The notes: generated by a model not told the origin, from the letters alone. Shown: positions 18,818-54,012, numbered from the stretch's first letter. The stretch: 64,000 bases of DNA from Dehalococcoidia bacterium (GCA_023228825.1 JALOAL010000001.1:43381-107380), one strand, 5' to 3'. Translations and numbers: made by a program.

Positions 18818-18985
18818 GCAGCCATCATGCTCCCCGCGCCCACCCGATGCGAGGGCGAGAGTCCCGAGGGGTACGTGACCTTCTGCCCTGCGGGTTGCAG
18901 CGGGGGCACGCATGATGAGGCCTGGACGTGACACCGGCTGACATGATGGGGGCACCATGAATACCGGTGGAGACGGGAGCGCGAG

Positions 18986-20362
18986 ATGGCGTCTGAGAAG
19001 GCTGTGAAGTCGGACGCCGGTCGACAGGACCGGGTGCACGTCCCCTTCCTGTACGCCTCGCTCTTGCTGGGCGTCTTCGGAGGCTTCAGCCTCGCGGTGA
19101 GCCTGCCGATCGAGCGGGCGATGGGCGGCTTCGACGTCTCGTGGGTGTCGCACGCCCAGGTGCACGGCCACCTGCAGGTGGTGGGCTTCGCCGGGCTCTT
19201 CGTCCTGGGCATGTCCATGCGCCTCTCCCCCCGCTTCGGCCGAGGCGACCTGGCCTTCATGCCGCTGGTGACGCCGGCGTTCGTGCTGCTCGTGGCCGGG
19301 CTCCTTATGCGCGCCCTGGGTCAGCCCCTGACCGACCACGGCTTCTTCGCCGCGATGCTGGTAGCCGGGCTTGCGGCCGAACTCCTGGCCGCCCTCGCCT
19401 TCGTCTTGATCATCGGAGCCACCCTGGCGCCGGCCCTGCGCAACCCACAGCCGCACGCGGTCCTGCTCGTGGGTGCGCCCGTGTGGCTCGCCGTGCAGGC
19501 CGCCCTCGGCATGTGGTGGCTGACGGACCTCGCGCGCGACGGCGGCACGATCGTGGAGCATGGGCGGAACACCGCGCTGGTGAACCTGCAGTTCTTCGGC
19601 GTGGTGCTCAGCGCCCTCCTGGGCGTGGGGATGCGCTCGTTCCCCACGTTCTTCGGGATGCCGCCCACCAGCCGCCCGCTGGGACTGGTCATGGCCACGC
19701 TGCTGCACGCCGGCCTGGCGGTCTGGGCGGGTGCGGCGGTGATCCGGGTGGTCAACGGCGTTGGCTCGGACACGCTGAACGTGGTCGGGTCGGTGGGTGC
19801 GGCGCTGGTGGGGGTGAGCATCCTGCTGGCGGTGGCGGCGTTTGGCCTCGGGCGACGCAAGCACCGGCTGGCCGCGGCCTCGCGCGGGTTCGTGTTTGCG
19901 CTGCAGCCCGTCCTGGCCTGGCTCGCGTTCACGGGCCTGGCGCTGATCTGGGCCGGAGGCCGCGCCGCGGTCGAGGGCAACCCCATCGGTATGCAGGAGT
20001 TGGACGCGGTGCGGCACGTCTTTGCCGTGGGCGTGATCACGCTCGCCATCGTGGCCATGGCGCAGTTGATGCTGCCGGAGTTCGCCAGCGAGCGCATCGT
20101 CAACCCGCCGGTCCCCTGGCGGGGGGCGGCGTTCGGCCTCGCACTCTCGGCCGCCGCAGTGCTGCGAGGCGTGCTGCCATGGGCCGGCCTCGCGGGCGAC
20201 CACGCGGACTGGGGGATGGCGCTCGGAGGCGGGATCGGCATCATCGCCGTGGCCGTGTTCGGCTACCTCTACTGGCGCGCGCGCCGAGGCCACGTGGCGT
20301 ACACCCAGCGCATCGCCGCCATGAGAGCCCGTAATACGCCGATCACCACGGTGAGCAGTTAG
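18986..20362 (+). CDS. nnrS: NnrS-family protein (putative NO-responsive heme-copper membrane protein)
   Basis: WVSHAQVHGHLQVVGFAGLFVLGMSMRLSPRF resembles the NnrS SWHAHEFLFGY..AGFLLTAVPNWTG region. About 12 TM helices and an internal two-fold repeat. Confidence 0.5.
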   Translation: MASEKAVKSDAGRQDRVHVPFLYASLLLGVFGGFSLAVSLPIERAMGGFDVSWVSHAQVHGHLQVVGFAGLFVLGMSMRLSPRFGRGDLAFMPLVTPAFVLLVAGLLMRALGQPLTDHGFFAAMLVAGLAAELLAALAFVLIIGATLAPALRNPQPHAVLLVGAPVWLAVQAALGMWWLTDLARDGGTIVEHGRNTALVNLQFFGVVLSALLGVGMRSFPTFFGMPPTSRPLGLVMATLLHAGLAVWAGAAVIRVVNGVGSDTLNVVGSVGAALVGVSILLAVAAFGLGRRKHRLAAASRGFVFALQPVLAWLAFTGLALIWAGGRAAVEGNPIGMQELDAVRHVFAVGVITLAIVAMAQLMLPEFASERIVNPPVPWRGAAFGLALSAAAVLRGVLPWAGLAGDHADWGMALGGGIGIIAVAVFGYLYWRARRGHVAYTQRIAAMRARNTPITTVSS

Positions 20363-20449
20363 GAGCGGGTGCTGCTCGGTAACAGACTGGAAACATTACG
20401 GGCGGATGCTACGGTGGACGCCCGAGCGGCAAGATTGGAATGACTGACG

Positions 20450-26043: not shown

Positions 26044-26718
26044 CTATTCTGCGCGCCGGACCCAGATGCGGCGGGCCGCCGGGTATCCCATGACCACCGA
26101 ATTGCCTGCCACGGACAATTCGATGGTGCCACGCACCGGCGAGTGAGCCTCCACCCGCAGTGGCACGCACGGTCGTACGCCCACCTCTTCCAGGAATCGT
26201 AACAGTTCCTGATCCTCCTCGAAGACCCGGTCCACCTCGGCGTGGTCGCCGGTGGTGAGGTCGGCGACCGTGGCGCTGGAGCCGGGTGCCGGCGGTGCGC
26301 CGCAGGCGGCGGGGATGGGGTACCCGAAGGGCGAGTGGCTGGGCGATCCGAGACGGCGGTCGATGAGCGCCTCCGTGATCGGCGAGATCGCGTGCTCCAG
26401 CAGGTGCGCCTCTTCGTACGCCCGCCACCACTCGAGGCCGAGCACGTCCACGAGGAGGCACTCCGCCAGGCGGTGGCGCCGGATCATCTCTTGCGCACGC
26501 TCCAGGCCCGGTGGCGTCAGGGAGACCCGCTTGCGCTCGTCCAGCGCCACCAGCCCGTCACGCTCCAGGCGGCGGAGCATGGCTGACATGGAGGGCGGCG
26601 TAATCTCCAGGCGCTCCGCCAGGCGCGCCGCGATCACCTCCGCCTCCTCGTCGTACTGGAGACGGTAGATCGCCGTGAGCGCGTCGTCTGAGGCGACGTT
26701 CGTGACCTGGCTGGGCAC
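26044..26718 (-). CDS. DtxR/IdeR/MntR-family metal-dependent transcriptional regulator with a C-terminal FeoA/SH3-like domain
   Basis: LTAIYRLQYDEE..ARLAERLEITPPSMSAMLRRLERDGLV, a HRLAECLL metal-binding helix and a C-terminal SH3-like domain. Confidence 0.8.
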   Translation of the reverse strand: MPSQVTNVASDDALTAIYRLQYDEEAEVIAARLAERLEITPPSMSAMLRRLERDGLVALDERKRVSLTPPGLERAQEMIRRHRLAECLLVDVLGLEWWRAYEEAHLLEHAISPITEALIDRRLGSPSHSPFGYPIPAACGAPPAPGSSATVADLTTGDHAEVDRVFEEDQELLRFLEEVGVRPCVPLRVEAHSPVRGTIELSVAGNSVVMGYPAARRIWVRRAE

Positions 26719-26724
26719 GGCTTG

Positions 26725-27286
26725 CTACTCCTCCACGCGGCGGCGTCGAGGCCTGGGCGGCGGGCGGGACGAGGTGGAGTCGGTGGCCCTCGGCGTGGAG
26801 CCGCCCCGGATGCCGGCGCGCGGGGTGGCCTTGGCGTGGTCGGAGCGCTCCGTGTACGTGCCGCGCTCCAACGCCGCGTCCACCTCCGCCAGGTCACGGA
26901 ACGAGGTGGCGCTCAGTTCCGTGGTCAGCGCCTCCTGCGCGCGCTTCCAGTGGACGTGTAGAGGGCAGGCGTGCTCCCAGTCGCACGGACCGCCTCGCAG
27001 CACGCATGACTCCAGGGCCACGGGGCCCTCCGCCATCTCCACCACCTCCAGCAGCGTGATCTCCGCAGGGTCCCGGACCAGCGCGTAGCCGCCGTCCGGC
27101 CCGGCCACGGCGATCAGGAGGCCCTGGCGGACGAGGTTCGCGAGGATCTGCGGCAGGTAGCGCTCCGGGATGTCCATCTCGGCGGCAATCTCTCGCGCCT
27201 TGCGGCGGCCCTGGCCGTGGTGCCGCGCCAGGTCCATGACCGCCCGCACCGTGTAGTCCCCCTTGCGTCCCAGTGTCACTTGCATC
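26725..27286 (-). CDS. nsrR: Rrf2-family transcriptional regulator with three Cys (NsrR/IscR-like), putative NO-responsive regulator
   Basis: MQVTLGRKGDYTVRAVMDLARH...REIAAEMDIPERYLPQILANLVRQGLL plus a CVLRGGPCDWEHAC cluster. Confidence 0.7.
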
Positions 27287-27533
27287 ACAACCGCCTCAAC
27301 GATGACCAGCGAAGTGGATGATACACAGCATGCCATGCTGGACGCCCGCGTGAAGCGGCGGCTGGCGAGGAACGCGGCGAGGGAGGAGCGCCGAGGGCGA
27401 GCGCCGTGGGCCGGCCTCCCGCAGAGAGTCCCGTCCGGGAGGCGACCTTCTGCCCTATGCCGGCGCCGATACGAGTGGAACCGTGGAACTGATGAGAGCA
27501 TCGATAGATGGACCGATGGATGGAGGTGCGGGC

Positions 27534-27968
27534 ATGAGCCTCAAGCAGCGGACGATCGCGGAGATCTCCATGCGCTGGCCGGAGGCGGGGCCGGTGCTGG
27601 AAGCCCACGGGATCGACAATTGTTGCGGCGGCGCTCATACGCTGACCGAAGCGGCAGAGGCCCACGGCGTGGCTGTGGACCTGGTGCTGACGGAACTGGA
27701 GGATGCAGGCGTGACTGAGAGTGACGAGGCGGCAGCCGGCGCGGAGCCGGTGGTGGACGTGCGGCCCCTGCCCCCGCGGGAGAAGCACCCCAAGGTCTTC
27801 GCCACCTTCGACGCGTTGCCCGTGGGCGGCGCGCTGCAGTTGGTGAACGACCATGACCCACGGCCGCTCTTCTACCAGATGCAGGCGGAGCGGCCGGGCC
27901 AGGTGGGCTGGGACCCGCAGGAGCAGGGCCCGGAACGCTGGGTGATCCGCATCGCCAAGGTCGCCTGA
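27534..27968 (+). CDS. ScdA_N (DUF542)-like plus DUF2249-like protein, NO/iron-sulfur-stress associated; alternative start at 27483
   Basis: IAEISMRWPEAGPVLEAHGIDNCCGGAHTL matches the ScdA N-terminal domain signature. The C-terminal FDALPVGGALQLVNDHDPRPLFYQ looks DUF2249-like. It is divergent from the Rrf2 gene. Confidence 0.5.
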   Translation: MSLKQRTIAEISMRWPEAGPVLEAHGIDNCCGGAHTLTEAAEAHGVAVDLVLTELEDAGVTESDEAAAGAEPVVDVRPLPPREKHPKVFATFDALPVGGALQLVNDHDPRPLFYQMQAERPGQVGWDPQEQGPERWVIRIAKVA

Positions 27969-28087
27969 CCGGATCGCACCGGTACGGCTCAAAACCAGGG
28001 ACGCCCTCCTCGTGAGGGCGTCCCTCGTTGCGTCCGTTGCGTCCGCCCGGCGGCCGTGCCGGCTCGAGCGCTGGTCGCGGCAGCGGG

Positions 28088-28981
28088 TCACGCGTCTTGC
28101 CTTCGGAAGATCGCGTTGGCCGCGACCAGGGGGAGGACGGCCCAGGCCAGCACCGCTGCGGTGAGCACCACGGCGCTGGTGGCCGCGCCGAAGCGCACGT
28201 GCATGTACGCGCCCAGCGGTCCCAGCACGTGCAGATCCGGCTCCAGGCTGAGGATCGCCAGGATGCGCACCGCCTCCACCGGGTTCAGCAGCGTGCTGAG
28301 CAGCAACGTCTCCCCGGAAGACGCCACCGAGAGCGCCATGCCGATGCCCACCAGGTTGTAGAACAGCACCAGCACAAACCACGTCACCACTGCCAGCGCC
28401 AGCGCCTTCGACCGGCCGTCGGACACCACCGAGATCAGCACGCCGATGCTGAGCATGGCGCTGGCAAGGCTCGCCGACAGCACCACGAACAGCAGGTAGT
28501 GCCCGAAGTCCGTCACCGGACTGACCAGGGCAATGAGCAGGCCGGCCGCGCCGAACCCCAGCATCACGGCGGCCCACACCGCAGCCGTCAGGCCCAGGTA
28601 CTTCCCCAACAGCAGTTCCGTGGCGGTGAGGGGCTGCGCGAGCAGCACGCCCAGCGTGCCTCGGTCGCGCTCGCCGGCTATGGCGCCGGCGCCCAGGATG
28701 AGGGCCAGCAGCGGCACGAGCAGCAGGCACAGGTTGATCAGGCTGGCCGTGGTGCGGTTGAACCCCTGCGACGCCACGCCGCCTTCCTGCTGCACGAGCG
28801 CCAGTCCCACCGCGACCAGCGCGAACGTGGCCGCGAACGCCACCAGCCAGCGGCTGCGCACCGCGTCCCGCAGTTCCTTCGCGAAGATCGTGGCCAGTCC
28901 GGCGGTGCGCGGGACCGCCGGTGCGGCCAGCCCCGTGGCCACTCCCGGCGTGCTGATCGGGGCATTCATCGGGGTACTCAC
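28088..28981 (-). CDS. nosY: ABC-2-type permease NosY
   Basis: Six-TM ABC-2 permease encoded immediately downstream of nosF in the nos cluster. Confidence 0.7.
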   Translation of the reverse strand: MSTPMNAPISTPGVATGLAAPAVPRTAGLATIFAKELRDAVRSRWLVAFAATFALVAVGLALVQQEGGVASQGFNRTTASLINLCLLLVPLLALILGAGAIAGERDRGTLGVLLAQPLTATELLLGKYLGLTAAVWAAVMLGFGAAGLLIALVSPVTDFGHYLLFVVLSASLASAMLSIGVLISVVSDGRSKALALAVVTWFVLVLFYNLVGIGMALSVASSGETLLLSTLLNPVEAVRILAILSLEPDLHVLGPLGAYMHVRFGAATSAVVLTAAVLAWAVLPLVAANAIFRRQDA

Positions 28982-29883
28982 TACGGGCCTCCCACTGCTT
29001 GAGGATCGGCCGTGGTGGCCTCCTCCACTCGGAAGTCCAGGATGGTGATGCCGCCCTCCACCAGGGCCTCGAAGACCTTCACTTTCTCGCCGGTGGGGCA
29101 GGTGACTGCCAGCCAGTCGCCGTTGCGGGCCACCTCCTCACCGGCGGCGGCGGCGATCAGGGGGATGGCCTGCGCCGTGTGGCCGTTCAGGCGGAAGAAC
29201 AGGCGGCTGCGCGCGGCGTTCGCACGCACGAACTCGGACGAGGGCCCGAGGAAGGTCGTGCGGCCCTGGTCCAGCACCAGGACGTGATCCGCCGTGGCCG
29301 GGACATCCTCCAGCCAGTGGGTGGAGAGCACCACGCTCTTGCCTCGCGCGCGCTGGGCGCGGATGAAGTCGCGCAACTCCAGGCGTGCCGCCACGTCCAG
29401 CCCCGTGGCGGGCTCGTCCAGGATGAACAGCGCCGGGTCGCCCATCTGCGCCACCGCCAGGCCCAGGCGCTGCCGCATGCCGCCCGAGAGCGCGCCCACC
29501 ATCTTCTCTGCGTGCCCGCCCAGGCCCACGGCCTCCACCGCCTCGCGCGCCCGCTCTTCCGATGCGCCGCGCAGGCGCGCGTAGAACATGGCCGTCTCGC
29601 GCACGCTGAGGTCCACGTGGAACGCCGGGTTCTGCGCCAGGTAGCCGATGCGCCCGCGCGCGCGCTTGCCGTCACGGGCGACGTCCACGCCGTCCACCAG
29701 GATGCGGCCCTGGAAGCGCATCAACCCCACGATGCTCTTGATGAGTGTGGACTTCCCGGCGCCGTTGGCGCCCACCACCGCCAGCACCTGGCCGCCCTGC
29801 AGGTCGAACGTGGCGCCGTCCAGCACCGTGGTGTTGCCGTATCGCTTGGTGACTCCCTGTGCGCTCAGCATGATGGCGTCCAC
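28981..29883 (-). CDS. nosF: ABC transporter ATP-binding protein NosF
   Basis: Walker A GANGAGKST, signature LSGGMRQR and Walker B ILDEP. Sits in nos-cluster context. Confidence 0.8.
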   Translation of the reverse strand: MDAIMLSAQGVTKRYGNTTVLDGATFDLQGGQVLAVVGANGAGKSTLIKSIVGLMRFQGRILVDGVDVARDGKRARGRIGYLAQNPAFHVDLSVRETAMFYARLRGASEERAREAVEAVGLGGHAEKMVGALSGGMRQRLGLAVAQMGDPALFILDEPATGLDVAARLELRDFIRAQRARGKSVVLSTHWLEDVPATADHVLVLDQGRTTFLGPSSEFVRANAARSRLFFRLNGHTAQAIPLIAAAAGEEVARNGDWLAVTCPTGEKVKVFEALVEGGITILDFRVEEATTADPQAVGGP

Positions 29884-31931
29884 TGCCTTCCCATGGTGCG
29901 CTTCGCTGCGACGAAGACCGACAGCGCCGCGGCGGTCAGGGCCAGGCTGACCAGCGCGGGGATGACCTCGAACGTCCGAGGCGTGCCGGAGGCGAGCGTG
30001 ATGGTGGGCGACATCAGCGGGTGCTCGTCCACCACGCGCGGCGTCACGCGGTAGACGGGGAACCAGCGGGCCGCCAGATCCAGCGCGCTGCGCGCCGGCG
30101 TGAACGAGTATGCGCGCACGGCCGGGCTGCGCTGCACCAGTTCGTCGTACGTGCCCTCGTAGCGGTAGGCCAGGTCACCGATGCCGTCGCCGTCCGCGTC
30201 GAAGCCCTGGTAGTCGTCCCAGTAGTTGCCGCGGCCCTCCACGGACCAGCGGTTGCGGTGCTCCAGGTTGCCGCCGCGCGACTCCACCTGCTGCAGGTTG
30301 CCGATGAAACTGTTGCCCAGGAAGGAGACGTCCGTGGTGGTGAAGAGTTCGACCGCGATCTGGTTGGAGGCGATCAGGTTGCCCTGGACCGTCACGAACG
30401 TGCCCGGCGTGCGAGGTGCGCCCTCCATGGTCATCCCCAGCCGGTTGCCGTGGATGCGGTTGCCCTGCAGCAGCACGTCGTCCATGTCCTTCAGGAGCAG
30501 CCCATAGCCCGAGGCCAGCGAGCGGTTGCCGCTGAACTCGTTGTCCACCACGGTCAGCCGCTGCGAGTACATCAGGCTGGCGCCGGCGATGTTCTGCCGG
30601 AACACGTTGCCGGAGGCGTGCAGGTCCTGCGCGTACATGGTGTGCAGGCCGTAGCGCACGTGCGTCACCACGTTGTCGTGGATGCGCGTGTTGCGGGCGA
30701 AGCCGGCAAAGATGCCGTCCTTGGCCAGGGTGATGGTGTTGCCCTCGATCAGGTTGTCCGTGCTGTACCAGAGGTAGAGCGCGTGGCCTCGGCGTTCCGG
30801 AGCCAGGTCCGCCATGCTGCTCACGTAGTTGTCGCGCACCACGTGGCCGCCGCTGCTGAGCAAGGAGATGCCGTAGAGCACGTCCTCAACGCGGTTCCCC
30901 TCCACAGTGGCGTGGTTGCCGGACAGGCGGATGCCGGTGGGCTCGTCCGAGACGTTGCGGGCGGAGTTGCGGACCGTGAAGCCGCGGAGCGTGACGCCGT
31001 CCGCGGTGACCTGCACCACGTCGCCCATGCCGGCGCCGTCCAGCACCACCGTGCCGTCCGCCACCAGGGTGAGCGGTTTGTCCACCACCACCGTGCCCAC
31101 GTACGTGCCCGCCGGCACCGCCAGCGTGCTCCCCTCCACCGCCGCCGCGATCGCCTCGTTGAGGTCGGCCGCGGCGAGGGCTGGCGAGGCGGCCGCGGTG
31201 GCCGAGGGCAGTGCGAGCGCGGCGCCCGTCACCAGCAGCACCGCGACGGCCGCGGCGCCGGTGTTGCTCCAACTCTCGCGCACGAAGCGGACCACGCGGG
31301 GGCCGGCGGCCAGCAACAGCGCCGCTCCCACAAGCATCCAGAACCCGCTATCCACCATGGTCTCCGTGTGGAAGTTCACCACCGTGGTGGTGCCCAGCAC
31401 CTTGGGCGTGAAGGGCTCCAGGCGGATCGGCGCCGAGGGGGCCAGGTCATGGCCATACTGGTAGAGCCACCACTGCAGGTCCACCAGCATCCCCAGCGGG
31501 ACGGAGACCACCGCCGCCGCCAGGAGCAGCCGCACACGCGTGCTCCGAGCCCACACCGCACCCGCCAGCAGCAACAGCACCAGCCCCGCGATGACGAACG
31601 GGAACGCCTTCAGTTCCAACAGCGTGTCCGGGTCGATGGGCCGGATGCCCACGTAGTGGTTCAGCGTGTTGATCTCGGACAGGTCGCCTTCCATGTGCGT
31701 GCCGTAGGCGTAGAGGTGCAGGCCGCCGGGGTACTGAGGCGCCAGCAACTCCATGCGCCACAGCGGGCGGAAGGCCGCCGCCAGCACCGCCAGCGCCGCC
31801 AGCACGGCGCACACGCCCCACACCCGGTCGATGCGAGACCACGCCAGGCTCACCGCGCTCCCCGCCTCCCGAGGCTCCTCGGCCGTCCGTTCTGGACGCT
31901 CCCACGCCCCCGTGTCCTGTCGGGTAGCCAT
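29865..31931 (-). CDS. nosD: NosD-like periplasmic parallel beta-helix copper-processing protein fused to an N-terminal multi-helix membrane domain of about 240 aa and a C-terminal TM anchor
   Basis: Beta-helix repeats (GNHATVEGNRVEDVLYGISLLSSGGHVVRDNYV...GNTITLAKDGIFAGFARNTRIHDNVVTHVRYGLH...) are typical of NosD. The N-terminus has about 6 hydrophobic segments. It overlaps nosF by 19 nt and nosL by 1 nt. Confidence 0.7.
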   Translation of the reverse strand: MATRQDTGAWERPERTAEEPREAGSAVSLAWSRIDRVWGVCAVLAALAVLAAAFRPLWRMELLAPQYPGGLHLYAYGTHMEGDLSEINTLNHYVGIRPIDPDTLLELKAFPFVIAGLVLLLLAGAVWARSTRVRLLLAAAVVSVPLGMLVDLQWWLYQYGHDLAPSAPIRLEPFTPKVLGTTTVVNFHTETMVDSGFWMLVGAALLLAAGPRVVRFVRESWSNTGAAAVAVLLVTGAALALPSATAAASPALAAADLNEAIAAAVEGSTLAVPAGTYVGTVVVDKPLTLVADGTVVLDGAGMGDVVQVTADGVTLRGFTVRNSARNVSDEPTGIRLSGNHATVEGNRVEDVLYGISLLSSGGHVVRDNYVSSMADLAPERRGHALYLWYSTDNLIEGNTITLAKDGIFAGFARNTRIHDNVVTHVRYGLHTMYAQDLHASGNVFRQNIAGASLMYSQRLTVVDNEFSGNRSLASGYGLLLKDMDDVLLQGNRIHGNRLGMTMEGAPRTPGTFVTVQGNLIASNQIAVELFTTTDVSFLGNSFIGNLQQVESRGGNLEHRNRWSVEGRGNYWDDYQGFDADGDGIGDLAYRYEGTYDELVQRSPAVRAYSFTPARSALDLAARWFPVYRVTPRVVDEHPLMSPTITLASGTPRTFEVIPALVSLALTAAALSVFVAAKRTMGRQWTPSC

Positions 31932-32476
31932 TACCGATGCTCCTGCTCCGTCGCGTGGCCGCCGCCTTCGGGGCCGTGGGAGGGCTCCCGGTAGGGCCCG
32001 TGTTCGTGGATGTGCTCCGTCAGGGCGTGCCAGGCGACCACCGTGCCGCCCATCTCCTGGGCCAGGCGGTCGGAGGCGTCCCGGTCCGGCGCTGCCGCAG
32101 CGCCGAAGGCCATGGGGCTGCGGATCTCTGCGGACAGCACGAAGGTCGCCGTCTCCACCGGCGCCCACGCCTCCTCGACGTAGGTGTTCACCCAGTGGCG
32201 AGCGTCGCCCGGCGCGGGGCGTTCAGCGGCCTCCAGCACCAGGCAGCCGATGTCGTCGAAGTGGACTTCGCCGGACTCTGTCGTCCAGGCGGCGGCGAAG
32301 CGCGCGTCGTCGATGATCATGCCGCAGCGCGCGCACGCCTCCTCGCCGTAGCGCACCACGGGCTCGCGGTCAGGGTCCAGGTCCTCGCCCTCCAGGAGGG
32401 CCGGCACGGCCACGATGGCGACCCCGACCGCACCGGCCGAACCAGCCAGGATGAGGAACCGTCTTCGAGTAACCAT
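31931..32476 (-). CDS. nosL: NosL-family copper chaperone with a twin-arginine signal
   Basis: RRRFLILAGSAGAVGVAIVA Tat motif, a CARCGM copper-binding motif and a C-terminal Met/His-rich tail. Confidence 0.7.
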   Translation of the reverse strand: MVTRRRFLILAGSAGAVGVAIVAVPALLEGEDLDPDREPVVRYGEEACARCGMIIDDARFAAAWTTESGEVHFDDIGCLVLEAAERPAPGDARHWVNTYVEEAWAPVETATFVLSAEIRSPMAFGAAAAPDRDASDRLAQEMGGTVVAWHALTEHIHEHGPYREPSHGPEGGGHATEQEHR

Positions 32477-32548
32477 GGTCGTCACCTCCTGAGGTGTCCC
32501 GCGGGGTGTGTGCCGGCGGCCCCCCTCCGCCGGCACACGGATCCCCCG

Positions 32549-34579
32549 CTACGCGACGAGCATCCAGCCCTGCATCTCCAGGTGGAGCGCGGAGCAGAAC
32601 TCGGTGCAGTACATGGCGAAGGAACCCTGGACGTCCGCGACAAAGTCGATGCGCGTGTACTCACCCGGGTCGAGGCTGACGCTGACGTTGTGGCGCGGGA
32701 TGGCGAACCCGTGCGTGGCGTCCGGCGTGGTCTCGATGTTGGTGAGGTGCAACGTGACCTGGTCGCCCTGGTTCAGGCGCAGGATGTCCGGCTTGAACTG
32801 GGAGCGCGTGACGGACATGAAGACCTCCACGCGGTTGCCGTCCCGCTCGATGCGCTCCTCGCCCTGCGCCACGGCGTTGGGGTCTGGCTGCATCGTCAGT
32901 GGGTTCGTGCCGGGCGGGTACAGGTCCCACGCCTTGATGCGGTCCGCGCGGATCGCCTGCACGTAGTGCGGCTCCGCCATGCCGATGGGCGTGTCCGACA
33001 GCACCTCCATCACCTCGCCTCCGAGGTCGACCAGTTGGAAGTTCTGCGGGTTCAGCGTCCCCACCGGCGAGTGGCGGTCAATGGACCACTTGTTCAGCGC
33101 GATGAGGTACTTGCCCTGGGGCTTGGTGGTGTCGCCTTCCATGGTGCAGAGGTGGCCGATGTTGTAGTGGACCGGCACCTTGTCCACGAGTTTGTAGGCC
33201 TGGTCGCCGCTGAAGTACGGCTCGCCCAGGGTGAACTTGGCCACCGCGCTCTCCAGGAAGAGGCTGGTGTAGCCGTGCCCGTCCGCGTCGTACTGCGTGT
33301 GCAGCGGGCCGGCGCCCACCTCCACGCGGCCAGAGACCACGGAGTCGTAGTTCAGGACGGGGATGCCGTACTGGTCGCGCTTCTCGAAGTCTTGGGCCTC
33401 AATCGCGGCCAGCATCTTCTCGAAGGAGTAGATGGTGACGTACGGGTCCAGTTTGCCGGCCACGCAGAGGTAGCCGCCGTCCGGGCTCACGTCCACGCCG
33501 TGCGGGCTCCGAGGCTCCGGCGCCAGGAAGAGGATGCCCTCCTCCACCGCCACGTCCAGCGGGATGACGCGCATGCCGTTGATGACCACGGACCGCGAGC
33601 CCACCACCTGCTCGGCCTTCTGCCAGTTGATGATGTGCATGTAGTCGAAGTCGTTGGCGGACGCGCCCACCTCAATCGGGGGCTTGCCCTCCAGGTTGCC
33701 GCCCGTGGCCATCTCGCTGTTGTAGGAGTTCAGGAACACCCAGCCGTGGCTCACCAGTTTCCCGGAGTCCGCCAGGTCCTGCGTGTACGGCGGCAACTCC
33801 ACCTGGAAACTGCGTGCCAGGTCAAAGCGCCCCGTCTCCTGGTCCACGGCCAGGAAGGTGGAGTAGCCGCGGTACACGTCCGCGAAGTTCTCCAGCGACG
33901 TGGCCGGGTCCGCGCCCTCTATCAGCGTGGGCGTCTTGGTGGAGATGTGCGCGTACTCCGTGTTCTGAGTGACGAACACCCCCCCGTGCGAGGACTGCAG
34001 GTTGGGCACGTCGTAGATCTGCTTCGTCTTGAAGTCCCGCATGTCCACCATGGCGATGCGCCCGTTGGCGCGGTCGTTGATGTAGACGAAGCGGCCGTCG
34101 TACTCGCCCTCCGTCTCGCTGATCGCGGGGTGGTGGGTGTCCGCCCAGGAGAGGTACCGGTGGGCCGAGGTGGACGGCCCGCCGGCGGACGTGGTGCCCT
34201 CCGCCAGCAGTCCGTCCGACTCGTTGCCGAAGCCGAAGCCCTGCCACGGCTCCGGCGTGAACACGCCCACTACCTTCTTGATCTTCATGGACGGCACGCC
34301 CATGACCAGGATCTGGCCGGAGTGGCCGCCCGAGGACAGGATGTAGAACTCGTCCATATCCGGTCGTCCGGGCGGGACCACCGTCTTGAGGGCCTGCACC
34401 ACCTCCGCAGGCGAGAGGCCGCGGGCCTCCGCCACGCTGTTCGCGTCGCCCGTCAGTCCAGAGGGCCCGGAGGCCCCGTCCCCCTCGTCGCTGAGCGTCT
34501 TGCCCAGCACCCCGCCGACCACCAGGCCGGCAGCGCCGGTGGCTGAACCCGCAATGAACTCTCGCCTCGTGACCGCCAT
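32549..34579 (-). CDS. nosZ: Nitrous-oxide reductase NosZ
   Basis: Tat-type N-terminus (TRREFIAG), a beta-propeller region with CuZ-ligand histidines, DTHHPA (a DxHH-type, clade-II-like motif) and a C-terminal CuA cupredoxin motif (H..YCTEFCSALHLEM). Confidence 0.9.
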   Translation of the reverse strand: MAVTRREFIAGSATGAAGLVVGGVLGKTLSDEGDGASGPSGLTGDANSVAEARGLSPAEVVQALKTVVPPGRPDMDEFYILSSGGHSGQILVMGVPSMKIKKVVGVFTPEPWQGFGFGNESDGLLAEGTTSAGGPSTSAHRYLSWADTHHPAISETEGEYDGRFVYINDRANGRIAMVDMRDFKTKQIYDVPNLQSSHGGVFVTQNTEYAHISTKTPTLIEGADPATSLENFADVYRGYSTFLAVDQETGRFDLARSFQVELPPYTQDLADSGKLVSHGWVFLNSYNSEMATGGNLEGKPPIEVGASANDFDYMHIINWQKAEQVVGSRSVVINGMRVIPLDVAVEEGILFLAPEPRSPHGVDVSPDGGYLCVAGKLDPYVTIYSFEKMLAAIEAQDFEKRDQYGIPVLNYDSVVSGRVEVGAGPLHTQYDADGHGYTSLFLESAVAKFTLGEPYFSGDQAYKLVDKVPVHYNIGHLCTMEGDTTKPQGKYLIALNKWSIDRHSPVGTLNPQNFQLVDLGGEVMEVLSDTPIGMAEPHYVQAIRADRIKAWDLYPPGTNPLTMQPDPNAVAQGEERIERDGNRVEVFMSVTRSQFKPDILRLNQGDQVTLHLTNIETTPDATHGFAIPRHNVSVSLDPGEYTRIDFVADVQGSFAMYCTEFCSALHLEMQGWMLVA

Positions 34580-34627
34580 CTGCTTGCTCCTTTGGCCGCC
34601 GGTACCGCGCCGGCTACGCCTCGTTCG

Positions 34628-35068
34628 CTACTCGACGATGACTTCGCCCACCATGCCTGGCAGGTGGAAGTCGCACTGGAACGTGAAGGTCCCGGCGGTG
34701 GAGAACATCACGTCGAATGAACTGGTCTCGCCCGGGTTGACCAGGGGCGCGCTGGCGAAGTCCTTGCCTTCCGTGGCGTTGCTCAGGATGCGCATGTTGT
34801 GGATCGCCACGCCCTCGTTGACCGCGTTGATGGTCACGGTCTCCCCGACCTTCAAGCGGATCTCGGTGGGTTCGAAGAAGTTGTCCTTCATGAGCACGTC
34901 GATCTCGCGTTCCGGCGTGCCGGGGGTCGTCGCCCCCTGCGTGGCCGTCGGCGCGGCGGTGGTCGCGGCGCCGCCGTTGCCCCCGTTGTCTCCCCCACAG
35001 GCGACGCTCGCCGCCGCGAGGATCGCAACGGGCAGCAGGGCAACCCACTGTTTCTTGATCAGACGCAT
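34628..35068 (-). CDS. Cupredoxin (plastocyanin/pseudoazurin-like) lipoprotein, probable electron donor to NosZ
   Basis: Lipobox LAAASVAC plus type-1 copper ligands (H...C.FH..GM: TFQCDFHLPGMVGE). It is directly upstream of nosZ. Confidence 0.75.
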   Translation of the reverse strand: MRLIKKQWVALLPVAILAAASVACGGDNGGNGGAATTAAPTATQGATTPGTPEREIDVLMKDNFFEPTEIRLKVGETVTINAVNEGVAIHNMRILSNATEGKDFASAPLVNPGETSSFDVMFSTAGTFTFQCDFHLPGMVGEVIVE

Positions 35069-35098
35069 CGGAACGTTCCTCTCCCCCTCGGTGCCATC

Positions 35099-35116
35099 TT
35101 GTGACTGACATCACAA
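35099..35116. promoter_or_regulatory. Perfect CRP/FNR-family dimer site TTGTGA-N6-TCACAA in the cupredoxin-nosZ promoter region, about 40 bp upstream of the cupredoxin start
   Basis: ttgtgactgacatcacaa is a perfect palindrome. A second inverted repeat GTTACC-N5-GGTAAC lies at 35140-35156. Confidence 0.5.
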
Positions 35117-35294
35117 GAACCTTTAGGCACAGACTAAACGTTACCCGCGTGGTAACGAGGGACGATGGTCCCGGAGAGTTCAGTACGTCGGTGATGAAAC
35201 CTCAGCGGGCCTGGGGAAGTGGGAGGCCGGGCGCAGATCGGTGCGGAGGGAGCCCCCCGCCGTGGCGTGGCGCCGTGGCGCCGCCGGAGGTTGG

Positions 35295-36920
35295 CTAACG
35301 CCCTCGGTACGAGCGGCCGGCCACGAGGTCGTCGCCGAGGAGTTCCGAGACGGTGACGACGTGCAGGCCCCGGCGGTCGAAGTCGGCCAGGATGGCCGGG
35401 ACCGCGTCCACCGTCGTCTCGTGGATGTCGTGCAGGAGCACGATAGAGCCGCGTCGGGCGTTCTCCGCCACGCGCTGCGCCACCAGCGCCGCGTCATGGT
35501 CAGCCCAGTCGCGCGGGTCCACGGACCACAGCACCATCGGCATCCCCACCAGCGCCGCGGTGCGTTCGTCCATGGCGCCATACGGCGGACGCAGGAGTCG
35601 AGGGCGCTGGCCGGTCGCCGCCTTGATGGCGTCGTTCGTCTCGTCCACTTGTTCCTGGAGCGCGTCTCCGCCCAGTTTCGTGAGGTCACGGTGGTTGAAC
35701 GTGTGGTTCCCCACCTCGTGGCCCTCGTCCACGATGCGGGCCACCATCTCCGGGCTGTATTGCACGCTGACGCCCACCACGAAGAACGTGGCGCGGCTGC
35801 CGTGCGCGGCCAATATGTCCAGCAAGCGTCCGGTGGGGCGGCCGGGGCCGTCATCGAACGTGAGGGCCACACACGCCACCTGCTCGCAGTCGACCGTGCC
35901 GCCCGGTGGGACCGAGGCGCCCGGCGTCTGGGTGGGGCCGGCGGTGGCCGTTGCCGTGGGCATCGCCGTTGCCGTGGGCATCGCCGTTGCCGTGGGGCTG
36001 GGGCTCGGCGTTGCCGTGGGCGGTGGGGGCGTCGGTGTCGGGGTCGGGGTCGGGGTCGCGAGCACGATCTCCGCGCTCGGGTTGGTCACCTCGCGCTGGG
36101 CCCGCAGCCCAAACTCCGAGAGCAGCGGCGCCACCGTGGCGTTCGGAATCACCACGCGAGGCTCCCCGGACGCGCCGGGGCCTACCTGGTACTCGTCGAA
36201 CTCGATCAGCAGGTCGCCCTCCGGCGTGAAGCCGATCGCGTCGTAGTTCTCCTCCGTGGGCGCGGTGCCGCGCTCCATGAACTCCACATCCATGAGGTCC
36301 GGGCGTTCGTTCCGCAGCGTGTCCCGCACGATCTCGACCACCTGTTGTAGCGCCGCTTCGCCGTCCAGCAGCGCCGTGGCGGGCACGCGTTGGTGCGCGG
36401 CGGTGTCGAACCAGACCGTGGTGGCCAGGTTCGCGCCGCCCGCGCCGAAGAACTCATACTGCTCCAGGCGCACGCCGATCACCGAGCCGGACGCCACGAT
36501 GAACTCGAAACTGACGTTGAATTCAGGCATCGCCAGGGAACCCTGTAGCGGCGGCCCCAGGTGCTCGTCGAAGGCCGCGCGCGCGGCCTGGATGATGGCC
36601 CACAATTCGTCGCCCAGCAGCGGGTAGCCGTCGATCACTGGCCACGTGGCGTAATAGTTGAACGGGTCGCGGAGGCGGCTCGCGGCCTGCGTGTCGAGGC
36701 CTTCGATCCACTCCGGGACCACCCGGGCATACTCCGCCACCGCGTACTCCTCGGCCGTGGGCGAGGGGGGCGGGGTCGCCTCGCGCGTCGGGGACGGCGA
36801 GGCGCTGGGCGTGGCGTCCGAGTCGCCGCCGAGGCAGCCGCCCGCGAGCAGGGCGACGGCGCCGAGGAGTAAGAGGCGCGCGAGGAGGTGGGCGCGCGCG
36901 CGCCGCAGGGAGATCGCCAA
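35295..36920 (-). CDS. Lipoprotein with an N-terminal DUF3298/RsiV-like region, a Thr/Pro-rich linker and a C-terminal NodB-type polysaccharide deacetylase (CE4) domain
   Basis: Lipobox LLAGGC. The TPTPTPTPTPPPPTATPSPSPTATAMPTATAMPTATA linker is encoded by 18-bp DNA repeats at about 35947-36000. CE4 motifs include TFDDGP and HTFNH. Confidence 0.7.
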   Translation of the reverse strand: MAISLRRARAHLLARLLLLGAVALLAGGCLGGDSDATPSASPSPTREATPPPSPTAEEYAVAEYARVVPEWIEGLDTQAASRLRDPFNYYATWPVIDGYPLLGDELWAIIQAARAAFDEHLGPPLQGSLAMPEFNVSFEFIVASGSVIGVRLEQYEFFGAGGANLATTVWFDTAAHQRVPATALLDGEAALQQVVEIVRDTLRNERPDLMDVEFMERGTAPTEENYDAIGFTPEGDLLIEFDEYQVGPGASGEPRVVIPNATVAPLLSEFGLRAQREVTNPSAEIVLATPTPTPTPTPPPPTATPSPSPTATAMPTATAMPTATATAGPTQTPGASVPPGGTVDCEQVACVALTFDDGPGRPTGRLLDILAAHGSRATFFVVGVSVQYSPEMVARIVDEGHEVGNHTFNHRDLTKLGGDALQEQVDETNDAIKAATGQRPRLLRPPYGAMDERTAALVGMPMVLWSVDPRDWADHDAALVAQRVAENARRGSIVLLHDIHETTVDAVPAILADFDRRGLHVVTVSELLGDDLVAGRSYRGR

Positions 36921-37219: not shown

Positions 37220-37294
37220 GCCCCCGTAGCTCAGGGGATAGAGCACCGGCCTCCGGAGCCGGGTGCGCAGGTTCGAATCCTGCCGGGGGTACCA
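37220..37294 (+). tRNA. tRNA-Arg (anticodon CCG), includes encoded CCA
   Basis: Cloverleaf read manually: acceptor GCCCCCG/CGGGGGT, D-arm TAGCTCAGGGGATAGAGCA, anticodon stem CCGGC/GCCGG with loop CTCCGGA, T-arm GCAGG-TTCGAAT-CCTGC, then ACCA. Confidence 0.8.
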
Positions 37295-37340: not shown

Positions 37341-37835
37341 ATGAGACAAACCGAGACCTATACCGAACAGATCGCCGCCACACGCGCCTTCAGATGGCTC
37401 GTCTGGGGCGTGGTAGCCGTCTCCGTGGGCATCGGCGCGGTGGTGATGGTGATCGAGGGCGACCGCTGGGCCTCCGCGCTCAGCATCGCCTTCGCCGTGG
37501 CGCTGCTGCTGGTGCTGGACCGCTGGTTCATGACCCTGCACGTCCGGGTGGACTCGGACGGCGTGGTGGCGCGCTTCGGGCCGTTCTCCAAGCGCCTGCG
37601 GCCCTCGGACATCGCGGACGTGGTGGGCGAGCCGTACCGGTGGATGTTGTACGGCGGCTGGGGGATACGCTGGGGCTTCGGCCGCCGGCGTGCGTGGACC
37701 GTCCCGTTCCTGAACCAGGGCGTGGCGGTCGCGCTACAGGACGGCTCGCGATACTTCATTTCCAGTCGGCAGCCGGAGCGCCTGCGCTCCGCCATCGTCC
37801 AGACGATCGAGGCACGCGGGGGGACTCGTGGGTAG
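37341..37835 (+). CDS. Hypothetical membrane protein (two TM helices plus a small soluble domain)
   Basis: ORF with an ATG start. Hydrophobic segments WLVWGVVAVSVGIGAVVMVI and LSIAFAVALLLVL. Confidence 0.4.
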   Translation: MRQTETYTEQIAATRAFRWLVWGVVAVSVGIGAVVMVIEGDRWASALSIAFAVALLLVLDRWFMTLHVRVDSDGVVARFGPFSKRLRPSDIADVVGEPYRWMLYGGWGIRWGFGRRRAWTVPFLNQGVAVALQDGSRYFISSRQPERLRSAIVQTIEARGGTRG

Positions 37836-37911
37836 AAGCAACCGAAGGCGGCGCCGCCGGCAGCAGGGCGAACTGCACGAGCCGATCGGCCAGGTCGAGT
37901 TTCCCGGCGTG

Positions 37912-38601
37912 ATGGGGTGGATGCAGCGGAACGGGAAGGTCCTGTTCCTGCTCGGCATCGTCTTCATGATCCTGAGCGTGGGCGCGGGCGCGTTCGCCAG
38001 CGGCCTCTCGTCACCGACCGAGGTGGCCCAGACCCCCACGCCGACCGCCAGCCCCACCGTCACGGATCCGGACGCCACGCCCACCGAGCCGCCCATCGAG
38101 CGTCGTTACTCGGCGGCGCCGGAGATGGCGCTGGAGGAGGGCGTGGACTACCGCGCAGTCATCCGCCTCGAGTCCGGCGAGGTCACGATCGACCTGCTGG
38201 AGGACGAGGCGCCGGGCTTCGTCAACAACTTCGTCTTCCTGGCGCAGAACCACTTCTATGACGGCCTGACGTTCCACCGCGTGATCCCCGGCTTCGTCGC
38301 GCAGGCGGGGGATCCGCTGGGCAGCGGCACAGGAGGTCCCGGCTACAACCTGCAGGACGAGGCGAACGCGCTCACCTTCGAGCGCGGCGTGCTCTCCATG
38401 GCCAGGTCCAGCCAGGGCGTGAGCGGATCGCAGTTCTTCATCACCCTGGGCCCCGCGCCGCACCTGAACGCGGACTTCACCGTGTTCGGCCGCGTGGAGG
38501 ACGGCATGGACCTGCTGGAAGCGCTGACGCCGCGAAACCCGGACCGGCCCGCCCAGCCCACGGGCGACACCATCCTGAGCATCGAAATCCTGGAGGAGTA
38601 G
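37912..38601 (+). CDS. Membrane-anchored/secreted cyclophilin-type peptidyl-prolyl cis-trans isomerase
   Basis: N-terminal TM helix and Thr/Pro linker, then cyclophilin motifs FHRVIPGFVAQAGDP...GSQFFITL. Confidence 0.85.
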   Translation: MGWMQRNGKVLFLLGIVFMILSVGAGAFASGLSSPTEVAQTPTPTASPTVTDPDATPTEPPIERRYSAAPEMALEEGVDYRAVIRLESGEVTIDLLEDEAPGFVNNFVFLAQNHFYDGLTFHRVIPGFVAQAGDPLGSGTGGPGYNLQDEANALTFERGVLSMARSSQGVSGSQFFITLGPAPHLNADFTVFGRVEDGMDLLEALTPRNPDRPAQPTGDTILSIEILEE

Positions 38602-38605
38602 CCAC

Positions 38606-39109
38606 ATGGCCAAGCAGTACGAAGCCGCACCGGCGATGACGATCGACCCGGGCAAGTCCTACACGGCGGTCATCAAGACCGAGCATGGCGAGATCCGCGC
38701 GCGTCTGCTGACAGACGTGGCCCCCAACACCGTGAACAACTTCGTCTTCCTTGCCCGCGAGGGGTTCTATGACGGCACCACCTTCCACCGGGTGATCCCG
38801 GGCTTCGTGGCGCAGGGAGGCGACCCCACGGGCAGCGGCACCGGTGGCCCCGGCTACCGCTTCCCGGACGAACTCTCTGACACCCCCTTTGTCACGGGCG
38901 TGCTGGGGATGGCCAACGCCGGCCCGAACACCAACGGCTCGCAGTTCTACCTCATGCTGGGCGACGCCCCCCACCTCACCGGCCGCTACACCGCCTTCGG
39001 GCAGGTGGAGGAGGGCCTGGACGTCCTGCAGGCCATCCGCACCCGCGACCCGGAGTCTGACCCGAACCCGGGCGACCAGATGCTCTCCGTCACCATCGTC
39101 GAGGAGTAA
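38606..39109 (+). CDS. Cytoplasmic cyclophilin-type peptidyl-prolyl cis-trans isomerase
   Basis: FHRVIPGFVAQGGDPTGSGTGGPGY...GSQFYLML. It is a tandem paralogue of the preceding gene. Confidence 0.85.
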   Translation: MAKQYEAAPAMTIDPGKSYTAVIKTEHGEIRARLLTDVAPNTVNNFVFLAREGFYDGTTFHRVIPGFVAQGGDPTGSGTGGPGYRFPDELSDTPFVTGVLGMANAGPNTNGSQFYLMLGDAPHLTGRYTAFGQVEEGLDVLQAIRTRDPESDPNPGDQMLSVTIVEE

Positions 39110-44000: not shown

Positions 44001-44077
44001 TGGTCGGGGCGCGCGGATTTGAACCGCGGGCCTCTGCGTCCCAAACGCAGCGCTCTGCCAGGCTGAGCTACGCCCCG
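44001..44077 (-). tRNA. tRNA-Pro (anticodon TGG), includes encoded CCA
   Basis: Reverse complement reads CGGGGCGTAGCTCAGCCTGGCAGAGCGCTGCGTTTGGGACGCAGAGGCCCGCGGTTCAAATCCGCGCGCCCCGACCA, with anticodon loop TTTGGGA. Confidence 0.8.
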
Positions 44078-53244: not shown

Positions 53245-54012
53245 TCAGTTGTGGTACCCCCCACGGTGGGCAGCGCCGAGCATCGGGATCTCCGCCACGA
53301 CGTCAATGGTCTCGTAGTGGTTGTAGGGGAGGATGGGGACTCGGGCGAGTTTGGCGTGCGTCAGCGGCGCCGTCCCCACCTCCAGGTCACGGAAGGGCTC
53401 CAGCGCCTCGATCACGCGCTGGCGTTCGCCCTTGCCGGTGAAGTAGGCGATGTCCATGGTGGGGACGAACTGGTCGCCGTCCTCCGTGATCAGCGGGTCG
53501 TCCTTCAGCACCTGGCCCACCAGCGGCACGCCCAACTTCGCAAGTCGGCGCGCCTCCCGGAAGGCGCCGCCATCCTCCACGCCCATGTAGATGCGCTCGC
53601 CGTCCCCCACGGAGACGCCTCGGAGCGTCACGCTCAACGGTTCAAGGCGTCGCAGACGCGGCGCGGCGTTCACGTAGAAGGACTCCACCTGCGACCACAT
53701 GATGTCCGTGGACATGAGAAAGCCCACGCGCACCCACGTGGTGTGCAGCCACTCCGTGGGGACCACATCCACCTCGGGCATCTCGCGCAGGCGCTCCAGC
53801 ACCGGCTCAAGCCCCTCGAAGGCCGAGGGCGTCTCCAGGCCGATCGGCTGCAGGAACTCGATGGGCACGCGCCAGCCGTGCGAGCGCTCCTCCCAGAGCG
53901 CCCAGTAGTCCGGCAGCGGTCCGGTGGCGTTGACGAACGCGTTCCAGTCGCGCTCGCGCTGCTCCGCGTAGGCCTGCGCCAGCGCCTGGGTGTCGTTGGT
54001 GTCCGCCGTCAT
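53245..54012 (-). CDS. Hypothetical protein, possibly a 2H-phosphoesterase (LigT-like) fold
   Basis: Contains an H-x-T-x motif ([10 protein letters not shown]) and a second, degenerate H-x-x-x segment (LTHAKL). Inserted between carA and carB. Confidence 0.3.

Follow-up and report, generated by a model that had tools for sequence, protein, structure and literature searches.

What kind of nitrous oxide (N2O) reductase system is encoded by a gene cluster in which a small blue copper protein, and no cytochrome c, accompanies the reductase, and how might such a system be supplied with copper and with electrons? N2O reductase (NosZ) is the only known biological N2O sink, and clade II organisms, many of which are non-denitrifiers, are looked to as possible net consumers of N2O in soils and wastewater. 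The cluster considered here lies in a 64,000-nucleotide (nt) stretch of DNA from a Dehalococcoidia bacterium (GCA_023228825.1, JALOAL010000001.1:43381-107380), hereafter called the window, and comprises six genes, all on the minus strand (28088-35068), in the order cupredoxin-nosZ-nosL-nosB::nosD-nosF-nosY. We read the region, with a probability of about 80%, as a self-contained operon for clade II N2O respiration in a high-GC bacterium of the Chloroflexota (class Dehalococcoidia). The cluster is a genuine, intact nos operon and an ordinary representative of a published Chloroflexota subgroup, with modestly new details.

The six genes were delineated from an open reading frame (ORF) listing and third-position G+C, together with Pfam and NCBIfam profile searches, and they bear the identities and the strand that a first-pass annotation of the window had given them. 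The same sequence has independent gene calls in three other assemblies, according to which NosL has 181 amino acids (aa), NosB::NosD 688 aa, NosF 296 aa, and NosY 293 aa. The genes had been described as tightly coupled by overlaps of 1-19 nt; this holds for three of the five junctions (nosL/nosBD, 1 nt; nosBD/nosF, 7 or 19 nt; nosF/nosY, 1 nt or else an 11-nt gap), whereas spacers of 48 and 72 nt separate the cupredoxin gene from nosZ and nosZ from nosL, respectively. The accessory genes nosL, nosB::nosD, nosF, and nosY, all downstream of nosZ, are translationally coupled. The functional unit reaches past the six genes and takes in the hairpin that follows nosY, a regulator pair (26725-27968), and a palindrome in the promoter region (Table 1). 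G+C is about 70% over the entire window with no compositional break at the nos cluster; there is, as an observation in its own right, no G+C hint of a recently acquired island.

Pfam searches run on about 50 further ORFs spanning the remainder of the window found no nosR, nosX, nir, nor, or respiratory-complex genes, and the CxxCH haem motif is absent from all likely genes of the window, which leaves it with no cytochrome c gene; the lack of nosR, nosX, and cytochrome genes noted earlier is, therefore, borne out. Calling the layout atypical is fair with respect to Proteobacteria, but not with respect to clade II clusters, among which the absence of nosR and nosX is the rule. The suggestion that the organism is a non-denitrifying N2O reducer overreaches, as the window is only 64 kb of a much larger genome and says nothing firm on denitrification capacity. 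Passages of a survey of metagenome-assembled genomes (MAGs) report norB/C in no nosZ-bearing Chloroflexota and nirK or genes for the dissimilatory reduction of nitrate to ammonium or assimilatory nitrate reduction in about one quarter of them (PMC11409646).

NosZ itself scores 758 bits with the clade II model TIGR04246 and 398 bits with the clade I twin-arginine translocation (Tat) model TIGR04244, the cut-off being 625 in both cases. Its DTHHPA motif aligns with DCHHPH of the structures 3sbp, 1qni, and 9f8x, the third His of DxHHxH being missing, and all seven CuZ His as well as the CuA His, Cys, Cys, His, and Met are present in the alignment to the Pseudomonas stutzeri enzyme (3sbp). The PDB chains that match NosZ by sequence, which we take to be clade I enzymes, all do so at only about 280-310 bits. 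The clade III lactonase-type L-NosZ was tried as a candidate and rejected (NF052460, 185.6 bits for a cut-off of 700).

The N-terminus of NosZ, MAVTRREFIAGSATGAAGLVVGGVLGK (MAVTRREFI), matches the Tat model TIGR01409 (16.8 bits, cut-off 16.7) and continues with a hydrophobic stretch and a Gly/Asp-rich linker; there is no AxA site and, at the other end of the protein, no C-terminal cytochrome domain. The [ST]RRE[FL]I motif is kept in every NosZ of the Dehalococcoidia-type group, Actinomycetota relatives carry TRRxALG, and more distant clade II enzymes have general secretory (Sec) or lipoprotein signals. A Sec-dependent signal, often that of a lipoprotein, would be expected of clade II; NosZ has a Tat-type signal instead, an exception within clade II Chloroflexota that passages of the survey cited above already document (PMC11409646). 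Of the features that define clade I (a score above the TIGR04244 cut-off, DxHHxH, nosR and nosX in the cluster), none is found here and the Tat signal alone is shared, while the cluster follows clade II in having nosB and in yielding neither nosR nor nosX in Pfam scans of the window. NosZ is, as predicted from its sequence, a clade II enzyme with a conserved twin-arginine signal, and its earlier description as clade-II-like in spite of that signal, on the strength of the DTHHPA motif, agrees with the profile scores.

A scan of one genome per species for relatives of NosZ yielded 72 loci. The closest enzymes (66-81% identity) belong to MAGs that bear the label Dehalococcoidia, Tepidiformales, or Chloroflexota, followed by those of Actinomycetota (56-60%) and then by the canonical clade II enzymes of Gemmatimonadota, Anaerolineae, and Myxococcota (44-54%). 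Searches by tblastn with the window proteins recovered the order cupredoxin-nosZ-nosL-(membrane+nosD)-nosF-nosY in about 25 Chloroflexota loci, often with an Rrf2 gene next. The 688-aa ORF is 100% identical to an NCBI NosD protein of a Dehalococcoidia MAG, which means that the window sequence is already public and annotated; together with the closest NosZ sequences, this match upholds the Chloroflexi-type lineage that had been proposed.

A Chloroflexota clade II subgroup carrying both a Tat signal and nosB has been published from wastewater MAGs of the class OLB14 (PMC11409646, in passages that credit Jones 2013 and Hallin 2018). It has the same clade II assignment, Tat signal, presence of nosB, and absence of nosR, and the combination of Tat, clade II, and nosB can thus not be presented as new in Chloroflexota. 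The relatives of the window differ in being labelled Dehalococcoidia or Tepidiformales, and that paper makes no mention of a cupredoxin; the passages concerned deal with signal type and nosB presence, and neither a NosB-NosD fusion nor regulatory elements are reported in them. In the searchable open-access literature we found neither the conserved cupredoxin gene and the regulatory elements of this subgroup nor any paper describing the NosB-NosD fusion, which does not prove their absence; nothing relevant was found there either on nosB with plastocyanin or on blue copper donors of clade II.

The cupredoxin passes the cut-offs of both of its Pfam models (27 for PF13473 and 21.2 for PF00127). 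It begins with a signal peptide ending in a lipobox Cys (SVAC/GG), which is followed by a Gly/Thr/Ala-rich low-complexity linker and by a domain whose ligands, His...Cys-x2-His-x3-Met, align with their counterparts in plastocyanin 1bxu and amicyanin 1sfd; the PDB matches also include auracyanin A (E = 1.5e-4), plastocyanin and amicyanin scoring better. The lipobox Cys and the four ligands are conserved across 24 homologues, and the protein has, by prediction, all the features of a type-1 blue copper protein. Its description in the first-pass annotation, as a type-1 copper lipoprotein encoded directly upstream of nosZ, is thus supported, and its linkage to nos is conserved in related loci. Actinomycetota loci, as well as loci L022 and L024, have the gene of a lipoprotein cupredoxin between nosZ and nosB; in four Myxococcota-type clusters (L044, L046, L055, and L059), the gene found between nosZ and nosB is that of a CxxCH cytochrome c. 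This replacement of a cytochrome c in the nosZ-nosB slot is the best available evidence for the cupredoxin as the electron donor of NosZ, a role that it supports and does not prove.

A relative with a 2.0-Mb contig (L076, 1-6507) has a Nar/Nxr-like operon divergent beside its cupredoxin-nos operon, with genes for a 1172-aa molybdopterin subunit, an Fe-S subunit, an EB_dh haem subunit, a NarJ-like chaperone and, last, a cupredoxin of its own. This second cupredoxin hints that cupredoxins are general extracytoplasmic carriers of the lineage.

The second particular of the cluster is the 688-aa protein, whose first 250 residues are matched by no Pfam or NCBIfam model. They had been left as an unrecognised “membrane” domain; by its sequence, this domain is NosB, the hallmark protein of clade II. 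Passages of the literature give LNHYIGM and YGHN as signature stretches of NosB (PMC9697520, citing van Spanning 2011), both of which have their counterparts here (Table 1). Homologues of the domain lie directly after nosZ, that is, in the nosB position, in clusters of Gemmatimonadota, Anaerolineae, and Myxococcota, and W58, Y67, E86, N91, H92, Y93, G95, G160, F174, and G180 vary hardly or not at all among 66 sequences. An AlphaFold model built with 57 sequences (pLDDT 88.8, pTM 0.79) has four membrane helices, two beta-sheet loops bearing the conserved residues, and a fifth helix, of which residues 227-240 are modelled at lower confidence. The charge distribution (positive-inside) predicts that both loops and NosD lie outside the cell, NosD being routed there by the fifth helix, at which cleavage possibly takes place. 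The NosD part is assigned by its TIGR04247 score (Table 1), and the ABC ATPase NosF and the ABC-2 permease NosY come next.

A single ORF encodes NosB and NosD in about 25 Dehalococcoidia-type MAG loci as well as in L021, L022, and L024; the two are distinct, neighbouring genes in Gemmatimonadota, Anaerolineae, Myxococcota, and most Actinomycetota loci. In the protein database, the fusion is spanned by about 85 cluster representatives with lengths of 600-740 aa, those that are named being called NosD or nitrous oxidase accessory protein only. An exhaustive HMMER search returned 924 NosB-family representatives (521 at E <= 1e-10); among the best 150 of them (clusters at 50% identity), 62 proteins are at least 300 aa long, with NosD as fusion partner in 40, NosL in 10, and additionally the NosF ATPase in 6, and a cytochrome or redox domain in 0 of the 62. 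Further fusions of maturation genes were seen in metagenomes, namely NosD-NosF and NosB-NosD-NosF (proteins P0093-P0103 and 6 members of the NosB-family alignment), as well as a 547-aa NosF-NosY fusion in L077 (11827-13470).

NosL deserves a word on its start codon and its signal. The ATG at 32476 stands behind AGGAGG and agrees with the independent gene call, a 201-aa version from a GTG start being less likely. The N-terminus MVTRRRFL matches the Tat-signal model, with no lipobox, and relatives likewise show a TRR[RQ]F motif. The PF05573 match is weak, and no NCBIfam model is matched.

Two of the alternatives that we considered concern the identity of the proteins. A Tat signal is a classical clade I trait, and NosZ could on that account be a clade I enzyme, or a clade I/II hybrid, using Tat and served by a nosR elsewhere in the genome; given the clade I score far below its cut-off next to a clade II score well above it, a DxHH rather than a DxHHxH motif, the nosB gene in the cluster, nearest non-Tat relatives that are canonical clade II enzymes (50-54% identity), and the low scores of PDB chains that are presumably clade I, we hold this to be very improbable, the profile scores by themselves ruling it out. 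No nosR turned up beside related clusters in the comparisons on the 72 loci, which were made without a NosR probe. One has also to keep in mind that an assembly error or a frameshift may join neighbouring genes, and nosB and nosD are indeed separate neighbours in the other lineages listed above. Against an artefact of this kind stand the recurrence of the single ORF in about 25 independently assembled MAG loci, the roughly 85 database representatives that span it, the 40 clusters (50% identity) that carry both domains, the identical sequence assembled from three separate sequencing runs, and a coherent topology in which the fifth helix puts NosD outside; recurrence across loci, databases, and sequencing runs refutes the artefact for practical purposes, and we give it hardly any weight.

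The other two alternatives concern function. We propose, tentatively and at somewhat less than even odds, that the Tat-type clade II subclade, formed by Dehalococcoidia-class Chloroflexota and some Actinomycetota, is an all-copper, cytochrome-c-free branch of N2O respiration in which a dedicated, membrane-tethered cupredoxin replaces the NosC-type cytochromes as donor to NosZ and NosB is a structural membrane subunit of copper delivery by NosDFY/NosL and takes no part in electron transfer; if this is true, such a role would explain why many lineages have NosB joined to NosD, NosL, or NosD-NosF. The cupredoxin could, however, be no donor at all and serve instead in CopI-like copper handling or resistance, buffering or supplying copper for NosZ, or as a general carrier for another enzyme, such as a terminal oxidase. 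This would suit its best NCBIfam match, which is CopI, albeit weak and partial (39.6 bits for a cut-off of 280, residues 45-94 only), the varying position of the gene relative to the cluster among relatives, and the carrier pool suggested by the second cupredoxin of the Nar-like operon in L076; it suits less well the complete His/Cys/His/Met set in 24 of 24 homologues, the alignment with the electron carriers plastocyanin and amicyanin (auracyanin A being matched too), the lack of His/Met-rich copper-sequestering stretches, the occupation of a slot held by cytochrome c genes in other clade II clusters, and the place of the gene as first of the operon behind a probably regulated promoter, and we regard it as quite unlikely. 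As for NosB, the literature leaves its role open between electron transport and copper management, in the passages concerned (PMC11409646, PMC9697520), and it could be an electron-transfer protein, e.g., a quinol-interacting membrane anchor feeding the cupredoxin or NosZ, with its fusion to NosD merely reflecting gene adjacency. We think this somewhat unlikely, as neither the fold nor the sequence contains a haem, Fe-S, or flavin motif, the conserved polar residues sit in the outward loops and not in the membrane core, the model resembles claudin-type scaffold proteins (9-13% identity) and is unlike known quinol oxidoreductases, and the partners of NosB in the proteins of at least 300 aa are NosD, NosL, and NosF and never a redox domain; it is favoured by the absence from the cluster of any other candidate quinol dehydrogenase and by reports of NosB-NosC2 cytochrome fusions (PMC11409646, in a passage citing Hein 2017).

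Several points weigh against our reading of the cluster as a whole or of its parts. The Tat score of NosZ sits at the threshold of the model. In L001 and L002, the cupredoxin gene is downstream of the cluster and not upstream, and in L003 tblastn with the window proteins detected none, so that its position is not fixed; a quinol-side partner of the cupredoxin is not among the window genes. About 10 of 24 relatives, the closest (L014) among them, lack the palindrome upstream of the cupredoxin gene (Table 1). The best-150 sample of NosB-family proteins is biased towards relatives of the window protein, the reported NosB-NosC2 fusions mean that the fusion evidence does not point to maturation alone, and the claudin-like match of the model is a topological resemblance that would imply no particular function. 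Lastly, whatever goes beyond homology in the function of the cluster in N2O respiration is something that we infer.

Table 1. Features of the nos cluster and of its surroundings (positions counted from the first nucleotide of the window).
Feature	Coordinates	Strand	Evidence or remark
Type-1 (blue) copper cupredoxin lipoprotein (predicted), 146 aa	34628-35068	minus	PF13473 44.5 bits; PF00127 31.9 bits
NosZ, nitrous-oxide reductase, 676 aa	32549-34579	minus	TIGR04246 758 bits; twin-arginine signal
NosL copper chaperone, 181 aa	31931-32476	minus	PF05573 29.2 bits (cut-off 24); CxxC motif
NosB::NosD (membrane::NosD), 688 aa	29865-31931	minus	TIGR04247 378 bits on residues 257-640
NosB module, residues 1-224; four-helix membrane protein with two outward-facing beta-sheet loops (predicted)	31260-31931	minus	Signature motifs
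NosB motif LNHYVGI, residues 90-96	31644-31664	minus	
NosB motif YGHD, residues 159-162	31446-31457	minus	
Fifth hydrophobic helix, residues 225-247, ending ...ALPSATAAAS	31191-31259	minus	Corresponds to the former NosD signal peptide
NosD module, beta-helix protein of the NosDFY maturation machine, in frame with NosB	29865-31190	minus	TIGR04247 378 bits (cut-off 300); PF05048 142.9 bits
NosF, ABC ATPase, 296 aa (ATG 29871; alternative GTG 29883)	28981-29871	minus	PF00005 108 bits; synteny; independent gene call
NosY, ABC-2 permease, 297 aa (GTG 28981) or 293 aa (ATG 28969)	28088-28981 or 28088-28969	minus	PF12679 125.7 bits; synteny
CRP/FNR-type palindrome TGTGA-N6-TCACA, perfect, 32 nt upstream of the cupredoxin ATG	35100-35115	unstranded	Motif scan
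Terminator-like hairpin with T-rich tail, ending the upstream polysaccharide-deacetylase gene	35139-35157	minus	Terminator scan
GC-rich stem-loop right after the nosZ stop, no U tail	32502-32548	minus	12-bp perfect inner stem 32508-32538
Terminator-like hairpin after nosY, 12-bp GC stem followed by UGGUUUUG	27990-28026	minus	Folding z = -3.38
ScdA_N (DUF542) + DUF2249 protein, like the N-terminal domain of RIC/YtfE Fe-S repair proteins	27483-27968	plus	PF10006 99.5 bits; PF04405 48.7 bits
Rrf2-family regulator, Cx6Cx5Cx2H	26725-27285	minus	PF02082 113 bits
tRNA-Arg(CCG), about 300 bp beyond the deacetylase gene preceding the nos operon	37220-37294	plus	
tRNA-Pro(TGG)	44001-44077	minus	

Several elements around the genes had escaped the first-pass annotation, namely the hairpin after nosZ, the TGTGA-N6-TCACA box, and the adjoining Rrf2 and ScdA_N-DUF2249 genes. 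The box is the only perfect match in the window and is the probable operator of the operon promoter. With 0-1 mismatch, it is found upstream of the cupredoxin gene (L007-L009, L011, L013, L015-L018, L020, L031, L060, and L069) or of nosZ (L002) in 14 related loci, which account for 16 of the 35 matches in 1.1 Mb, a strong enrichment at this position. A Crp/Fnr-family gene adjoins nosZ in L077, and none was found within the 64-kb window. A copy with one mismatch that overlaps the start codon of the Rrf2 gene (27274-27289) was set aside as a chance match, about one such match being expected in the window. A Sigma-70 promoter scan of 26500-35400 gave no site and is uninformative for a Chloroflexota promoter.

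The hairpin beyond the box separates the deacetylase gene from the nos operon. The stem-loop that follows nosZ is very stable (-43.8 kcal/mol, z = -3.56, with 0 of 200 shuffles as stable), and a hairpin of 10-15 bp occurs at the same spot in about 20 of the 24 Dehalococcoidia-type loci compared (L001-L020, L031, L060, L068, and L069); its being kept while its sequence differs suggests selection for structure. The element is probably a partial terminator (attenuator) or an mRNA stabiliser that would set the ratio of structural to accessory transcripts. Rfam, run on the whole window, returned the two tRNAs only and no riboswitch or known RNA at this hairpin. The hairpin after nosY, although not listed by a consensus terminator scanner, is the predicted end of the operon.

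Beyond this last hairpin lie the ScdA_N-DUF2249 and Rrf2 genes, an arrangement shared with the closest relative (L014); more than 20 loci of several phyla have an Rrf2 gene beside their nos clusters. The Rrf2 protein passes the superfamily model TIGR00738 only (104.9 bits, cut-off 73.3), and its identification as NsrR was rejected (equivalog model, 37.3 bits for a cut-off of 182). It probably binds an Fe-S cluster and is a candidate redox- or nitric oxide (NO)-responsive regulator of the cluster. A DtxR/MntR-type repressor gene (26044-26718) is found beyond it.

In the mechanism that we propose, a Crp/Fnr-family regulator encoded outside the window would switch on transcription, the neighbouring Rrf2 Fe-S regulator might add a redox or NO input, and the hairpin after nosZ would keep the mRNA of the cupredoxin and NosZ above that of the maturation genes. 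Apo-NosZ and NosL would exit the cell via Tat and probably stay tethered by their uncleaved signal anchors and long Gly-rich linkers, a tethering that would suit a cell with no outer membrane to retain a periplasm. NosFY with NosB::NosD, fed by NosL, would load copper into NosZ, NosB being most likely, as a claudin-like four-helix protein with conserved outward His, Tyr, and Glu, a membrane subunit of the NosDFY/NosL maturation machine and not an electron carrier. A quinol-oxidising complex encoded elsewhere would reduce the membrane-tethered cupredoxin, and the latter would pass single electrons to the CuA site of NosZ in place of the c-type cytochromes of other clade II clusters.

With the clade II clusters of Wolinella succinogenes, Gemmatimonas aurantiaca, and Anaeromyxobacter, the cluster of the window has in common a NosZ core matching TIGR04246, the DxHH motif, nosB next to nosZ or nosD, the nosDFYL genes, and the lack of nosR and nosX. 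It differs from them in its Tat export instead of Sec or lipoprotein signals; in having a type-1 cupredoxin gene instead of nosG, nosH, nosC1, nosC2, or any cytochrome c gene; in the position of nosL between nosZ and nosB; and in the fusion of NosB to NosD. The nosRZDFYLX clusters of Proteobacteria such as Pseudomonas stutzeri and Paracoccus denitrificans share Tat export of apo-NosZ and extracytoplasmic maturation by NosDFY and NosL, as predicted here, but the window has no NosR or NosX, a NosZ below the clade I cut-off, a NosB, and a NosL with a Tat signal rather than a lipobox. In some species of clade I Proteobacteria, electrons can reach CuA from pseudoazurin, the established donor to N2O reductase in Paracoccus and Achromobacter. 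Within Chloroflexota, the auracyanin of Chloroflexus is a blue copper protein that is tethered to the membrane and receives electrons from Alternative Complex III (ACIII); the cupredoxin of the window is likewise predicted to be a type-1 copper protein of Chloroflexota, with an N-terminal anchor and a linker as its tether, although the two are only distantly related and no ACIII genes are in the window.

Blue copper proteins bring haloarchaea into the comparison as well. Haloarchaeal NosZ is a Tat substrate, and these enzymes, which are archaeal, are placed with clade I; we know of no NosB-NosD fusion in haloarchaea. In Haloferax mediterranei, cupredoxins (halocyanins and azurins) have been proposed as donors of NosZ and NirK replacing c-type cytochromes, and denitrification induces DUF2249 genes that lie beside nar, nos, nirK, and nor, the regulatory motif (CGAAYATDKTYG) being different from that of the window (PMC11218638). 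Finally, the NosB-NosL fusions of Bacteroidota (Dyadobacter and Flavobacterium), as presented in passages of PMC9697520, also place NosB N-terminal to a copper-delivery component and contain LNHYxG and YGH motifs, whereas in the window the partner is NosD and NosL is a separate, Tat-targeted protein.

The cluster adds little to the catalogue of N2O reducers, since the Chloroflexota subgroup with Tat and nosB was already recorded. It does offer three leads: in lineages that lack soluble cytochromes c, the donor of electrons may be a specific small blue copper protein; the gene fusions bear on the role of NosB, which is essential in Wolinella; and, as NosB has no Pfam or NCBIfam model, the fusions are annotated as NosD, and surveys that use such models or names would miss nosB.

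The other genes of the window, as assigned by Pfam, are housekeeping or regulatory only (histidine and pyrimidine biosynthesis, carAB, malic enzyme, cyclophilins, a two-component system, a GAF-GGDEF protein, and several regulators). The pyrimidine cluster (pyrR-like, pyrB, pyrC, carA, carB, pyrK, and pyrD) is contiguous but for two genes of lower third-position G+C between carB and carA (53245-54494, minus strand), one of which resembles, by eye, a GNAT-type acetyltransferase. Two long ORFs overlap on opposite strands (17651-20395, minus, and 18947-20362, plus), both with gene-like third-position G+C and neither with a Pfam or NCBIfam match. Two cyclophilin-type prolyl isomerase genes stand in tandem on the plus strand (37828-38601 and 38606-39109); by eye, the product of the first appears to combine a membrane anchor at its N-terminus with a low-complexity linker, and it is probably extracytoplasmic.

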